From an uncultured Gemmatimonadales bacterium (lineage in GTDB: Bacteria; Gemmatimonadota; Gemmatimonadetes; Gemmatimonadales; GWC2-71-9), in the NCBI GenBank assembly GCA_963695555.1, contig CAVOGR010000010.1, positions 1-36,966 on the forward strand: 36,966 nucleotides of DNA. The letters run 5' to 3'. The first letter of the stretch is position 1. Each line of letters begins with the position of its first letter. Shown here piece after piece: positions 18,082 to 36,966 of this stretch. The notes beneath the pieces were generated by a model. It was not told the origin of the DNA. It saw nothing but the letters and a program-made list of their open reading frames with translations, and ran no database searches. The translations under genes were made by a program, and so were the position numbers.

Positions 18082-18179
18082 GGGGGCGGATCGGGCCTGG
18101 TGGCTCGGCCGGTCTTCAAAACCGTGTAGGAGACGCCCTCGGCGGCTCCGGTGGGTTCGATTCCCACACGCTCCCGCCA
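18082..18179 (+). tRNA. selC: tRNA-Sec (anticodon UCA)
   Basis: 98 nt long. 6-bp D stem CGGGCC/GGCTCG with TGGT loop, loop CTTCAAA (TCA at 18116-18118), long variable arm, T arm GTGGG-TTCGATT-CCCAC, 3' GCCA. Confidence 0.93.
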
Positions 18180-31670: not shown

Positions 31671-31744
31671 CGGGGCGTGGCGCAGCCCGGTAGCGCGCCT
31701 GCTTTGGGAGCAGGAGGTCCCGGGTTCGAATCCCGGCGCCCCGA
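31671..31744 (+). tRNA. tRNA-Pro (anticodon UGG); CCA not encoded
   Basis: CGGGGCG/CGCCCCG acceptor, GCGCAGCCCGGTAGCGC D arm, loop TTTGGGA (TGG at 31705-31707), GGTTCGAATCC T loop. Confidence 0.96.
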
Positions 31745-31778: not shown

Positions 31779-31974
31779 AGAGAGGGGGAGCAGTCGAGGG
31801 GTATGCTGCCGGGGTGTTATGCATGAGTGGGGGTTGGGTTGCTTTCGGCGCTTTGGAAGGTCCAACCGTCTATCCCTCCAGCCAGCGCCAACAACTGGCG
31901 CCTTGGTGATTTGGGCTCTGGAGGTCGCCGGGCCGGGGTAGCGAAGCTCGCAGGATTGGGGCATACTTTTTTGC

Positions 31975-31993
31975 AGTCCATATCTCGTTAGGC
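31975..31993 (+). other. Candidate attI-like site (left boundary of the cassette array)
   Basis: GTTAGGC core at 31987-31993, preceded by AGTCCAT-ATCTC rather than an attC arm. The sequence after it is the start of the repeated cassette. Confidence 0.4.
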
Positions 31994-32213
31994 AGGCCAG
32001 GCCTCTCCAACGCTCAGCGACTCCGGTTCAGTGCGAACGATCCTTGGAGGGGTTCTGCGGTCGTTCGCCATCGCCGGCCGGCTCCTTGGGCGTGCCAAAC
32101 CGATGGTGCACCGCTCGGGGTACGCCATGGACGGGTGGCGAGCGGTACGTTCACGGCTTCCTGCTCCGATTCAGCCCGGCTCGTGTCTATGCGGGCCGAG
32201 AGGGCGGCCCGGC

Positions 32214-32365
32214 TTCCCTAGCCGCCGTGCGGACTCGTGGAAAGTGCTTGAGGACCGCTGAGTCGGGCTGTCGGGAGGGCGCTGGTCTCTTCACGGAGTC
32301 GACCCGCTGAATTGAGGAACTGGGCAAGCGGGCGTAGACCCCGCAGACTGAGGCGGGGGACGGAG
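32214..32365 (+). repeat. Degenerate attC (subtype B-like)
   Basis: CCCTAGCCGCCGTG...GCGGGCGTAGACCCCGCAGACTGA matches the subtype B ends. AAC has become AGC and no GTTAG is retained. Right boundary approximate. Confidence 0.55.
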
Positions 32366-32550
32366 ACGTCGAGGGTTCTAGCGGTCAGGACCTGGTGGAT
32401 CTGGACGAAGTGGCTGAGTAGCTTGCCGGGGTCCTGTCGCTGCCACCTAGGCAGTGAGGGCTGGAGCCCAGAGCAACGATTCAGTTTCGCATGCAGGTGG
32501 GCCGGATCCTAGCATTCTAAAGGACACTAGGCGGTGATACCTAAGCGCGG

Positions 32551-32657
32551 TCCTAACCACCGCGTGCAGTGGCCGGGCCTTGCCGGTTCTGAAGGAAGTC
32601 GTTGATTAGTGCACAGGCGGGCGAGACGGCCCGCCACTGACGCGGGATTCGTTAGGC
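32551..32657 (+). repeat. attC site 1 (subtype A)
   Basis: TCCTAAC...CCGCGT-G-CAGTGG-C-CGGGCC / GGCCCG CCACTG ACGCGG...GTTAGGC; imperfect palindrome with two unpaired bases. Confidence 0.9.
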
Positions 32658-32920
32658 GGCGCAATCCGATAGCTCTGCGTGTGGAGCGATGCTCTGCCGG
32701 AGCGTCCTTCACATCTCTAGCGCACGCGCACTCAGCTGGCGCATGCTAACGCTGCACGACGTGGTCCGCTTCGTGGCACCGAGCAGCCTCCTGATAGGTT
32801 CTCGAGGGAACCAGCGGCCCTGCTGCGCAGTGCTGGACGACCTCGGGGTGCGACTGACAGCATCCGGGCCGGCATGTCGCCAAGCACAGGCAGTGAGCAA
32901 GAACCCGGCAGAATGCGGCC

Positions 32921-33027
32921 ACCTAACCACCGCGTGCAGTGGCCGGGCCTTGCTGGTTTCGAAGGAAGTCGTTGATTAGTGAGAGGCGGGCTGAGATGGC
33001 CCGCCACTGACGCGGGATTCGTTAGGC
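32921..33027 (+). repeat. attC site 2 (subtype A)
   Basis: ACCTAAC...GTTAGGC, same arms as site 1. Confidence 0.9.
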
Positions 33028-33037
33028 CGATGCCCCA

Positions 33038-33538
33038 ATGACCATGCGCTGCCTCTACCTCGACACGTGCATACCGAGCGCCGCTATGCGCGGGCATTCT
33101 CAAGCTCGGACAGTGACGGGTTCGCCAGGATTGCTGCCGCTGCGAGGGCGGGCAACGTGGCGTTGTGCGCCTCAACAGTCATGGAAGAGGAATTCGAGCA
33201 AGATCCCCAGCGAATACAGAGGACCGTACGTGGAGGCGCATAGTGCTCTGAGTCAGATCCGAGGCTCTTCAGATCAGCTGGATCGACGACGAGCCCGAGT
33301 CTACAGGGTACGGGTCGGTGACCACTGACCCACTGTACTCTGGGCTTAAGACCCTTCTCAAGGACGAGGCCGATGCACTGGCACCTCTTCCATGCCAAGA
33401 AGGCTGGCATCGACGATGTGGTCACTATCGACCAGCAGACAATCCTAAGCAAAGCGTCCCAACTTGAGGCTCAGTTCGGCATTAGGGTATGGCGACCTTC
33501 GGAATTCTCAAGCAGTTTGTCCAGCGAGGGCCGCCTAA
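33038..33538 (+). pseudogene. Cassette-borne PIN-domain (VapC-like) nuclease, frameshifted in this sequence
   Basis: Joined frames give CLYLDTCIPS / ALCASTVMEEE / LLKDEADAL / HLFHAKKAGIDDVVTID...FGIRVWRPSEF, which is the PIN acidic-residue pattern. Several indels are needed. Confidence 0.7.
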
Positions 33539-33640
33539 CCACCGCGTGCAGTGGCCGGGCCTTGCTGGTGACTAAAGGAAGTCGTTGATTTGTATGAGGG
33601 CGGGCAAGATGGCCCGCCACTGACGCGGGATTCGTTAGGC
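33533..33640 (+). repeat. attC site 3 (subtype A)
   Basis: GCCTAAC...GTTAGGC, same arms. Confidence 0.9.
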
Positions 33641-33974
33641 GGGCGAACTAGCCGATCGGCACGGTATCGCTGCGATCGCGGCTACCGGATGCGCTTCGCC
33701 TGGTTGGCACTCGAGACAGCGTGGCGCGCAGCACCGCAGCTCGGTCGCCGGCTGCTCGAGTCTTGCGCAGGCGTGCCGAGCAGTGCCTCGGAGCATGAGC
33801 TGGCTCGGATTGCGAGCCTGCGTTGCATCGGCGATGACGACGAGCCGGTGCTGGCGATCGCTGTCGGCGGGATCGCTCGGCTACGCGGTTCTCAGGCAGC
33901 TACGTTCGCTCAGGCGCCAGTCTCGGGTCGGCCTTCGCGGACAGCGCGGACCGCAGCGGACGTCTGGACCGGCT

Positions 33975-34082
33975 GCCTAACCACCGCGTGCAGTGGCCGG
34001 GCCTTGCTGGTTTCAAAGGAAGTCGTTGATTTGTGAGCAGGGCGGGCTAGATGGCCCGCCACTGACGCGGGATTCGTTAGGC
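33975..34082 (+). repeat. attC site 4 (subtype A)
   Basis: GCCTAAC...GTTAGGC, same arms. Confidence 0.9.
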
Positions 34083-34272
34083 AGACCAGGCCTCTACTCT
34101 CCGCACCTCCGGTTCAGTTCCAGCTCCTCAACGAATTATGTGGTTGTTCGTCTCTGCCGGTCGGCTCCTCGCACCCAGGGGTCCGCTCCGGGTACGTCCG
34201 CGGTGGGACTAGGGTTTTCCCTAGCGCTCCGAGCAGTCCCGGGTCTGTCCGGGCCGAGGTGTGCGGCCGGCT

Positions 34273-34380
34273 CCCTAACCGCCGTGTGCAGCTGACGGGC
34301 GGGCGCTTGTGTTTTGAAGGAAGTCGTTGAATTGTGTGAGGGCGGGCATAGAGCCCGCAGCTGACACGGATTCGTTAGGC
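34273..34380 (+). repeat. attC site 5 (subtype B)
   Basis: CCCTAAC...GTGT-G-CAGCTG-A-CGGGC / GCCCG CAGCTG ACAC...GTTAGGC. Confidence 0.9.
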
Positions 34381-34569
34381 AGACCAGGCCCTTCACTCTC
34401 CGCAACTCCGGTTCAGTTCCAACTCCTCAACGAATTATGTGGTTGTTCGTCTCTCCGGTCGGCTCCTCGCACCCAGGGGTCCGCTCCGGGTACGCGCGCG
34501 GTGAGCTAGGGTTTTCCCTAGCGCTCCGAGCAGTCCCGGGTCTGTCCGGGCCGAGGTGTGCGGCCGGCT

Positions 34570-34677
34570 CCCTAACCGCCGTGTGCAGCTGACGGGCGGG
34601 CGCTTGTGTTTTGAAGGAAGCCGTTGAATTGTGTGAGGGCGGGCATAGAGCCCGCAGCTGACACGGATTCGTTAGGC
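34570..34677 (+). repeat. attC site 6 (subtype B)
   Basis: CCCTAAC...GTTAGGC, same arms as site 5. Confidence 0.9.
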
Positions 34678-34866
34678 AGACCAGGCCTTCACGTCTCCGC
34701 AACTCCGGTTCAGTTCCAATTCCTCAACGAATTATGTGGTTGTTCGTCTCGCCGGTCGGCTCCTCGAACCCAGGGGTCCGCTCCGGGTACGCCCACGGTG
34801 AGCTAGGGTTTTCCCTAGCGCTCCGAGCAGTCCCGGGTCTGTCCGGGCCGAGGTGTGCGGCCGGCT

Positions 34867-34975
34867 CCCTAACCGCCGTGTGCAGCTGACGGGCGGGCGC
34901 TTGTGTTTTGAAGGAAGCCGTTGAATTGTGTGAGCAGCGGGCATAGAGCCCGCAGCTGACACAGATTCGTTAGCG
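34867..34975 (+). repeat. attC site 7 (subtype B)
   Basis: CCCTAAC...GTTAGCG, same arms as site 5. Confidence 0.88.
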
Positions 34976-35531
34976 ACCGCAGTCGCTCATGCGATGTGCC
35001 GATCTACTTCAGCTGTCTGGCATGCCTGTCATCGCGGCTCTTGTCGCGCAGCCCGGCGACTCTGCGACAGGCCAGTGCCCGAGTGCCGCTGTGCGACAGG
35101 CAGCCAGTCAGCCACGGCCACGTGATCGGTACTTCTACGACTGGGATCGCGCCGAGCACTTGCCTGCCGGTCCCAGCTGAGTTCGCGCACCTCAGTGCGA
35201 CTGGCCGGGTTGACGATCGCGGCAGTCATCGCTCTGGACAGCTCGGTCGGCGATCACGCGAGTATGCGGCGGGCAACGTCAGCAGCTGTGCTGCGACTGT
35301 CGTAGATCCTATGTCTGGATCGTGGAGGACTCCAGATCGTGAGCACGGCCGCTCGGATGGCGCTGGCCTCATCGCGAGTACGCATTCGGACATGCCACGC
35401 TGGCTGCAGAGTCACGACGCCCCGACACCTGCGTGCGCGATCTGTCCGCGAGGCGACCTCGCGACTGAGCAGTGGCGCATCAGTCTAAGTCAATGCGGCC
35501 GCTGGCTCGCAGTCACCGTCGGAACGATGCT

Positions 35532-35639
35532 GTCTAACCAGCCGCGTGCAGTGGCCGGGCCTTGCCGGGTCTCAAGGAAGTCGTTGATTTGTGAACAGGC
35601 GGGCGAGATGGCCCGCCACTGACGCGGGATTCGTTAGGT
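35532..35639 (+). repeat. attC site 8 (subtype A)
   Basis: GTCTAAC...GTTAGGT, subtype A arms. Confidence 0.9.
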
Positions 35640-35648
35640 GGCAACGCC

Positions 35649-36212
35649 ATGAAGGCACGAGGCAAGATCCCATTGTGGATTGGCCTTGCGGGGTTGGCTC
35701 AAGGCTGTGCTCCGATGCCGCCGCAAGTAACGCCCAAGGCGCTGTGCGAAATGCCAGCGCCTGATACGGGCTCATGGCAACGACTTCAGATCGGCAGCAA
35801 CTTCACGGTGTCGGCCCCACCAGACCTTGTTCCTGACACATCCGTCGTAGCCGGATTGACATTTTACCACGGCGGTCAACAGTGGCTTGAACAGGATCTG
35901 ATCGTGTACTGGGACCTCTCGAACCCGGCAACGGGCGGGCTCCTACACGATTCGCTTGAAGCCCGGCTCGCGCGAGCTGACGAGTGGAATGCACCAACGG
36001 AGTGCGCCCCTCCCACACCGCCGGATTGGGTGGTTCGATCTTCCATCAGTCGCCAGGGGCGCCAATACACGACGGCTGTGTGGATGATGCGGGAGCAAGG
36101 CACTCGCAATGACATCTACCACTTGAACCTCACCGCCCAAACGGAGTCGGCGTTTGTCGATGCGATATGGATTGTCCGGTCGCTTCGGCCCGTGAGAGAT
36201 GGTGGTGGATAG
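35649..36212 (+). CDS. Cassette-encoded hypothetical lipoprotein
   Basis: ATG 10 nt after attC8 and stop 10 nt before attC9; MKARGKIPLWIGLAGLAQGC lipoprotein-type signal. Confidence 0.8.
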   Translation: MKARGKIPLWIGLAGLAQGCAPMPPQVTPKALCEMPAPDTGSWQRLQIGSNFTVSAPPDLVPDTSVVAGLTFYHGGQQWLEQDLIVYWDLSNPATGGLLHDSLEARLARADEWNAPTECAPPTPPDWVVRSSISRQGRQYTTAVWMMREQGTRNDIYHLNLTAQTESAFVDAIWIVRSLRPVRDGGG

Positions 36213-36221
36213 GGTGTCGCC

Positions 36222-36328
36222 ACCTAACCACCGCGTGCAGTGGCCGGGCCTTGCTGCTTTTGAAGGAAGTCGTTGATTTGTGGGCAGGCGGGCGAGATGG
36301 CCCGCCACTGACGCGGGATTCGTTAGGC
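36222..36328 (+). repeat. attC site 9 (subtype A)
   Basis: ACCTAAC...GTTAGGC, subtype A arms. Confidence 0.9.
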
Positions 36329-36346
36329 AGCGCAGGGAGACGACCG

Positions 36347-36589
36347 ATGGGTATCGATCCCGCCTTCGCTGGCGTCCTGGTTGTCTACGTCGTTATCGTG
36401 ATCGCCGATGTCTATTTTGACGTCCTCCATCAACGTCTCGGCCGGCGGGTTCTTCTCAGCCTTTCTTCGGGTCGCTTCCCGCCCGCCGACCCAAGTCCCG
36501 TCCAGCGCCGGCTCACGTCCCTCGCAGGGCTCGCGGTTACCCTGGCGTTCCTCCTTATCGTCCTGGTCTTTACTAGGCGTATGCCGTGA
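36347..36589 (+). CDS. Cassette-encoded 80-aa two-TM membrane protein
   Basis: GGGAGA RBS and two hydrophobic helices; fills the interval between attC9 and attC10. Confidence 0.7.
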   Translation: MGIDPAFAGVLVVYVVIVIADVYFDVLHQRLGRRVLLSLSSGRFPPADPSPVQRRLTSLAGLAVTLAFLLIVLVFTRRMP

Positions 36590-36614
36590 GCGCAGAGTGC
36601 GGACGGGGTGCGCT

Positions 36615-36722
36615 CCCTAACAGCCGCGTGCAGTGGCCGGGCCTTGCTGATTTTCAAGGAAGTCGTTGATTTGTGAGAGGGCGGGCAATGATTGCCCGCC
36701 ACTGACGCGGGATTCGTTAGGC
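36615..36722 (+). repeat. attC site 10 (subtype A)
   Basis: CCCTAAC...GTTAGGC, subtype A arms. Confidence 0.9.
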
Positions 36723-36937
36723 AGACCAGGCCCTTCACGCTCCGCAACTCCGGTCCAGTTCCAACTCCTCAACGGATGATGTGGTTGTTCGTCTCGGTGG
36801 TCGGCTCCTCGCACCAAGGGGTCCGCACCGGGTACGCCCACGGTGGGCTAGGGTTTTCCCTAGCGTTCCGAGCAGTCCCGGGTCTGTCCGGGCAGAGGCG
36901 TGCGGCCGGCTCCCTAACCGCCGTGTGCAGCTGACGG
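36717..36937 (+). repeat. Further copy of the gene-less cassette with a truncated subtype B attC (starts 36912)
   Basis: Aligns with the 34077-34969 units, including CTAGGGTTTTCCCTAG (36848-36863) and CCCTAACCGCCGTGTGCAGCTGACGG. Confidence 0.88.
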
Positions 36938-36966
36938 AGCAATACGATGGTTGAACCAGTAACAGG
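36938..36966. other. Probable Oxford Nanopore ligation-adapter remnant (technical)
   Basis: AGCAATACG-ATGGT-TGAAC-C-AGTA-ACAGG resembles the adapter reverse complement AGCAATACGTAACTGAACGAAGTACAGG (recalled from memory). It starts exactly where attC homology stops. Confidence 0.7.

Follow-up and report, generated by a model that had tools for sequence, protein, structure and literature searches.

A repeated gene-less integron cassette of a Gemmatimonadales genus and the intergenic palindrome that it carries

The DNA analysed here (the window, 36,966 nucleotides in all) is one contig, C10, of the genome of an uncultured Gemmatimonadales bacterium (G000; 14 contigs, 3.57 Mb), and its right end is filled by an integron-type array. 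In this array, in other arrays of the same genome and in related species we find a cassette of 297-298 bp that is a real, multi-copy, non-protein-coding unit, moving between arrays and species. The short hairpin in its body is the same sequence as a palindrome that occurs between genes throughout the genus and also between the integrase gene and attI, an identity that is new. Because the palindrome is kept at conserved intergenic sites and at the integron platform, we read the cassette as a cis-regulatory signal: a mobile non-coding family, amplified by the integrase, whose body would be retained for the signal that it carries. We favor this reading and hold it at slightly less than even confidence; its strongest competitor is the view that the cassette is purely selfish.

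The array and the cassette unit

The array runs on the + strand from 31988 to 36966 and comprises 11 cassette slots, divided by attC sites of about 100-110 nt in which an RYYYAAC-type box comes first and GTTAGGC last. It is headed by an attI-like site (31960..31987, + strand, with the crossover G|TT at 31987/31988), whose core aligns locally over 32 nt with the attI core 3' of intI on contig C7 of the same genome; the same core precedes the first cassette in a related genome, G002. Upstream of this site lie a patatin gene and a tRNA-Pro gene (31671-31744), right after which the array begins. Elsewhere in the window (18082-18179) there is a tRNA-Sec gene, from which it is likely that the organism uses selenocysteine.

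No integron integrase gene is present in the window. The genome's intI lies on contig C7 (C7:852589-853714) with an attI and an array of its own, and either G000 possesses two attI-headed arrays or the window array has been displaced from its platform. Matches to the integrase model TIGR02249 are split over three frames in G000 (G000:C7:852589-853532) and over two in G002 (G002:C5:469363-470189); the frame breaks denote either pseudogenes or indel errors of long-read assemblies. In a second relative, G004, the gene is intact and scores 437.6 bits (cut-off 265). Integrase and attI are both found, therefore, in the genome and its lineage.

The gene-less cassette is made of a body of about 200 nt and an attC of 104-108 nt, with a G+C content of 63%. 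Each unit begins at a G|TTAGGC crossover (GTTAGGC at 34076, 34374, 34671 and 36716; GTTAGCG at 34969), with the R'' box CCCTAAC about 100 nt 5' of each R'; a G|TTRRRY crossover is found at both ends and an attC at the 3' end. Three copies, all on the + strand, lie head to tail with 96-97% identity: copy 1 (34077..34374, 298 bp; body 34077-34278, attC-B from R'' at 34273 to R' at 34374-34380), copy 2 (34375..34671, 297 bp), which serves as reference, and copy 3 (34672..34969, 298 bp), whose R' is GTTAGCG. When copy 2 was compared with the whole genome by BLAST, it matched copy 3 at 96.7% and copy 1 at 96.3%, as well as a fourth copy on the + strand (36717..36937; 93.2% over 221 nt) in which the body is whole and the attC-B is cut after about 27 nt. 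What interrupts this attC is the last 29 nt of the contig (36938-36966), a sequence unique in the genome; it resembles a sequencing adapter and, if it is one, would be an assembly-end artefact. The first slot of the array is occupied by a decayed + strand copy (31988..32300), comprising a body and a degenerate B-type attC and fused to the following DNA; it is matched at 31988-32086 (74.7% over 99 nt, E 7e-8) and again over 36 nt at 32182-32217. BLAST thus bears out the four bodies and the diverged fifth that a first-pass annotation of this DNA had named. Its estimate that they make up five of 12 slots holds for the numerator, with four good copies and a decayed one; the denominator is 11.

The same annotation had tied a particular attC subtype, B, exclusively to this body. 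Within the window this is correct for all four B-type attCs; elsewhere the link is not strict, since a metagenome copy (L076 593-912) has an A-type attC and two other attCs of G000 are intermediate (81-82% identical to B, as against 71-78% for A-types). The loop signature of attC-B occurs at 14 genome loci, five of them in the two Gemmatimonadales MAGs that carry the cassette; at none of the nine loci from other phyla was the body found, and three of these gave short loop matches only. On its bottom strand the attC-B of copy 2 (34570..34677, - strand) is predicted to form an imperfect hairpin with paired R'/R'' and two single-base bulges, with a folding energy of -22.2 kcal/mol (z -2.52) compared with -29.4 (z -4.76) for an A-type attC. 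Such a fold, with paired R and L boxes and unpaired bases, is the one expected of an attC.

A partial complementarity of the body ends, also proposed earlier, survives in reduced form. Between the two segments named, no more than 5-6 bp can form; what is seen consistently at the ends is pairing of TTAGG with CCTAA of the cassette's own R'' box, together with GGCC/GGCC. The R-box half of this pairing follows from the way in which a cassette is built. Past the R boxes, the ends of other cassettes match their own partners at 5.5 of 14 positions and unrelated partners at 4.3. An extension of a few bases is therefore common in these arrays, and end pairing is not special to the 297-bp cassette.

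The body had further been described as having no self-contained ORF. Strictly, a 51-codon ORF (34437..34592, + strand) begins in the body and ends inside the attC; its 153 nt (156 with the stop) compare with a criterion of no ORF above 150 bp in Boucher et al. 2006. The possibility that the cassette encodes a small protein through this frame could draw on the fact that a + strand frame of 41-73 codons, beginning with ATG, GTG or TTG, is open in most copies, but open frames of such length are expected in DNA of 63% G+C. Moreover, indels relative to the reference body break the frame in 18 of 20 copies (the other two have no indel), and the N-terminal half of the 51-codon frame is read in different frames in different copies. 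pN/pS values range from 0.68 to 1.54 over three segments and six frames, near 1 and with no frame consistently low, and neither the 51-aa nor the 91-aa frame has a match in Pfam. Similarity among the homologues extends from end to end and shows no periodicity by codon position. We judge the ORF not to be coding and a small protein product to be very improbable; a conserved small ORF, the outcome that the first-pass annotation had set against its own proposal, was not seen by indel phase, pN/pS or Pfam.

Spread between arrays and species

Five more copies reside in G000 outside contig C10. Three are on contig C8 (85-93% identity) and one is in the C7 array behind intI (89%); a 120-nt truncated copy (G000:C7:384294-384413) ends a mini-array of two attCs. 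Besides the reference, the genome holds nine further full, partial or decayed copies on three contigs. The mini-array itself (G000:C7:384294-384915) sits beside a duplicated tRNA 3' end and is composed of two attCs of different types, one small-ORF cassette and the shortened copy, which breaks off after about 150 nt. Among 40 relatives searched, two carry the cassette, both of the same genus (G002 with five copies and G004 with four), and none of the 36 from other genera has it. When a single genome of every species was scanned with a pattern, the same two MAGs were the only ones to match. In metagenomes a loose pattern returned at least 119 loci, to which a profile search was then applied. 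The pattern had been too loose: 113 of the 119 loci were rejected as chance matches, and among the matches listed at least six contigs carry the cassette, in at least seven copies. Within the range of these searches, and among the matches listed for metagenomes, the family occurs in a single Gemmatimonadales genus and in metagenomes from sediment and estuary, and nowhere else.

Two metagenome loci have an unusual build. At one (L041:2-832), a whole body and a degenerate B-type attC come directly after the stop codon of an ORF, while at the other (L112:150-447) only the 3' 140 nt of the body and attC-B follow unrelated DNA. Both look like cassette fusions, and they show the body to be capable of standing as a gene's 3' trailer.

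Several observations show that the same unit has entered different arrays. Its upstream neighbors differ between contigs C10, C8 and C7 of G000, G002, G004 and the metagenome loci. Two arrays of G002 hold copies with exactly the same sequence. In a tree of the copies, from which three partial ones were left out, the three genomes are interleaved, with seven label changes against a minimum of three. Copy 3 of the window differs at five positions from a copy of G002, as against 10 and 14 from its own neighbors; hence the tandem triplet is not a recent local duplication. In G002, intI and attI are followed at once by four tandem copies, occupying the positions at which incoming cassettes are inserted. 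The earlier suggestion of a proliferating cassette agrees with these four copies at attI and with the presence of others in several arrays and species.

It might be objected that the triplet is an artefact, a repeat collapsed or expanded in assembly, as three contigs of the assembly end inside cassette arrays. However, any two of the three copies differ at 10-14 positions, and each has a closer match in another genome; tandem arrangements are also seen in assemblies made independently (G002 with four copies, G004 and metagenome contig L076 with two each). An artefact of this kind seems to us barely conceivable.

Parts of the window are present in 20 of the 22 sequencing runs listed, all at small shares. 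Three estuary RNA libraries and one sediment DNA run yield short contigs, 85-99% alike, that cover an A-type attC and the 297-bp cassette only. In these four runs the unique neighbors (33640-33954 and 35026-35520) are not covered; the runs therefore do not demonstrate the presence of the source organism.

Folding, promoter signals and the palindrome of the body

The body keeps its length, 200-208 nt in 19 of 21 aligned bodies, down to identities of 66-72%, and of its 201 positions 59 are invariant and 60 nearly so. Besides the palindrome, the cassette has a GTGGTTGTTCGTCTC block. That the body is under constraint is argued from this pattern of length and blocks, and not against a neutral rate, in 20 distinct related sequences; recent spread together with gene conversion, an explanation put forward for Vibrio, could account for some of its conservation.

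One way to account for such a body would be a structured RNA borne by the cassette, non-coding and made from the + strand (a small RNA or a cis-acting RNA element), and the first-pass annotation had in fact called the cassette structured. The alignment examined comprised 21 bodies (20 distinct, all related; mean column identity 72%), from which three partial copies were excluded, as were the decayed and the truncated ones. The consensus fold given by RNAalifold is better on the + strand (38 pairs, -26.2 kcal/mol, six pairs with double changes) than on the - strand (31 pairs, -20.5, two such pairs), but the covariation terms, +0.28 and +0.45, respectively, are close to zero. None of 500 shuffles reaches the six double-changed pairs of the + strand, yet sliding the partners by one column (-1) also gives six. 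Scored on a sequence-only alignment, the local structure of the reference fold reaches 0.094, compared with 0.096 for shuffles, 318 of 500 of which attain that score. The z-scores of the fold are modest: -1.5 for the + strand RNA of the body, -2.9 for the - strand RNA and -1.0 for the bottom-strand DNA with attC. In favor of an RNA one could cite a similar nested hairpin in the middle segment of most subfamilies, with z between +1.5 and -2.6 and energies that are not significant, and a 22-nt insertion that folds on itself in two copies. Among the predicted pairs there are 55 G-T cells as against eight A-C cells, a ratio biased by prediction on the + strand. Contigs of the three estuary RNA libraries cover the body, but these libraries may hold DNA and the contigs show no ends. 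Rfam gave no family at the gathering threshold and, with E up to 5, only two chance-level matches; no target complementary to the conserved blocks was found elsewhere in the genome. With neither a curated match nor covariation better than the controls (RNAalifold, slid partners, shuffles), the term structured is not established apart from short hairpins, with power limited by the 20 distinct related sequences. We consider an RNA of this kind improbable.

Scans for sigma-70-like promoters and for intrinsic terminators found none in the 297-bp cassette. A weak candidate resembles promoters of ECF sigma factors (TCAAC, 16 nt, CGTCTC; 34427..34453, + strand), the consensus used for comparison being the one that we take to be typical. 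The motif coincides with two conserved blocks and is kept in 14 of 25 copies; it is missing from the other 11, near-identical copies included. It is not in genome-wide excess at a spacing of 16 (scan for AAC, 15-17 nt, CGT). Its occurrence in the searched upstream region of six of the 18 ECF-type sigma genes of G000 tells little.

The palindrome, CTAGGG-TTTT-CCCTAG, is the most informative part of the body. Its conservation in the four good copies was correctly reported: CTAGGGTTTTCCCTAG is exact at 34209, 34506 (34506..34521 in the reference copy, + strand), 34803 and 36848. With at most one mismatch it is matched 25 times in G000 (seven of these inside cassette copies), 15 times in G002, 11 in G004, seven in G001 and not at all in G003, and once each in two of 36 genomes of other genera; a reversed control pattern gave one match in all. 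These numbers are to be seen in a genome, G000, that strongly avoids CTAG (observed/expected 0.16). All 21 non-cassette sites examined lie outside called ORFs and have no similarity in their flanks. They include four CCCTAA-ended variants, with a different and common upstream context, that form a separate group. At these four loci (G000:C1:18039, C1:394834, C2:7272 and C6:248) a small hairpin is followed by CTAGGG-N4-CCCTAA, constituting a separate repeat family, and two of them are near contig starts. By our reading, nine of the approximately 16 remaining loci follow a same-strand ORF at a distance of no more than 300 nt, and two are in divergent promoter regions.

Outside cassettes there are some 18 intergenic places (for example G000 C1:716227, C1:716259, C1:968596, C2:289183, C7:243976 and C7:853594) with the consensus CTAGGG-(A/T-rich 4 nt)-CCCTAG, and several have counterparts at equivalent positions in G002. 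Both genomes also have the palindrome between intI and attI, 56 nt past the intI stop; these 16 nt are the only homology between the body and the intI-attI spacer. The palindrome could be an operator or other protein-binding DNA site, an RNA hairpin, or a neutral repeat captured when the cassette was formed.

We also considered, and rejected, a REP element mobilized by a RAYT transposase. The repeat on either side of the genome's sole Y1_Tnp gene (G000:C3:49194-49541) is another and longer one, and so the palindrome is not the REP of this gene; contig C3 has no palindrome with at most one mismatch. The region around this gene (G000:C3:48900-49700) presents a Y1 transposase of RAYT/IS200-like type with inverted repeats of its own, of about 50 nt.

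How the cassette came to be so frequent can be envisioned in simple terms. Its copies would multiply through excision by the integrase and re-insertion at attI, a cycle that its short length would favor. On the reading that we prefer, the body would be retained for cis-acting signals, of which the palindrome is the best clue, and with each insertion the cassettes downstream would acquire, ahead of them, a site for a binding protein or an RNA hairpin, possibly also a promoter, in the manner of the promoter cassettes of Vibrio. One could also imagine, without any of this, a cassette that is purely selfish or neutral: short, equipped with a good attC and often re-inserted, with a functionless body and a palindrome inherited as a passenger from the DNA that gave rise to the cassette. 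This view agrees with how many copies there are, with their first-slot and tandem placement at attI, and with their dispersal across arrays and species, and neither the promoter and terminator scans nor the ECF-like motif nor covariation proves a functional signal. In the part of Loot et al. (PMC5371416) concerned with excision, shorter cassettes are excised more under some conditions, and identical flanking sites allow slippage; selfishness is also one of two options considered for the Vibrio families in the relevant section of Boucher et al. (PMC1382264). However, a useless body should shrink or drift, and this one retains its length and blocks between copies only 66-72% identical; in addition, the palindrome is among the best-kept parts of the body and is conserved elsewhere in the genus. 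We regard the selfish cassette as possible but rather unlikely, and favor the signal cassette.

It is tempting to go one step further with the signal cassette and to speculate that the palindrome is the target of a genus-specific factor, binding DNA or an RNA hairpin, that also acts between intI and attI. Copies of the cassette would then bring the array under the control of the platform, as operator, insulator or transcript-end cassettes. This specific scheme is a doubtful one in our estimation; if true, mobile carriers of a control site would represent a functional class of cassettes beyond promoter cassettes.

Relation to known gene-less cassettes

Gene-less repeated cassettes are already known, and by analogy the 297-bp family appears to fit among the paralogous non-coding cassettes of Vibrio and the promoter cassettes. 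According to Boucher et al. (PMC1382264), gene-less cassettes make up 6-49% of Vibrio chromosomal arrays and are often paralogs of one another, a single array having as many as 45 copies; their close homologues are given there as confined to other vibrios, and the authors view them as either selfish or useful to the integron. As far as that text describes them, the Gemmatimonadales cassette is similar in having no ORF with a coding signature, in being multi-copy, in having homologues only in related species and in being alike over its full length. It differs in its phylum, Gemmatimonadota, in an attC subtype that is mostly its own, and in a palindrome common to the intergenic DNA of the host and to the platform.

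To our knowledge, promoter activity is the only activity so far shown for gene-less cassettes. According to Blanco et al. 2024 (PMC11014356), most of the gene-less Vibrio cassettes tested have promoter activity in the sense orientation, and a section title states that such promoters cannot be identified in silico. The present cassette resembles these in being gene-less and in lying in the sense orientation in its array, from which it could feed transcription downstream. Unlike them, it has no sigma-70-like match, and its sole promoter-like motif, a candidate at the level of sequence, is kept in 14 of 25 copies. The Vibrio promoter cassettes studied in that paper are also longer (491-666 bp) and AT-rich, compared with 297 bp and 63% G+C here. 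Treponema integrons, as cited in the same paper, have intI on the strand of the cassettes, as is the case here.

Our literature searches, which did not extend to supplementary files, found no paper on Gemmatimonadota integron arrays or on this cassette family. The phenomenon of gene-less cassettes is extended by this family to Gemmatimonadota, a common phylum of soils and sediments. The family also offers a compact test case, in which a length-conserved body of 200 nt, an attC subtype of its own, repeated insertion at attI and a palindrome shared with the platform and with conserved intergenic sites of the host come together. Should the palindrome be a control site, regulation by the host would be linked to cassette arrays; otherwise, the cassette would be an ordinary selfish or neutral one.

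The VCRs of Vibrio are a homogeneous family of chromosomal attC sites. The attCs of the present host are like them in being nearly identical even in the loop, with R'' and R' boxes, bulges and a bottom-strand fold, features that follow the attC structure outlined in the pertinent part of PMC5371416. Unlike the VCRs, they comprise two subtypes in one array, one of which is found almost only with a single cassette body.
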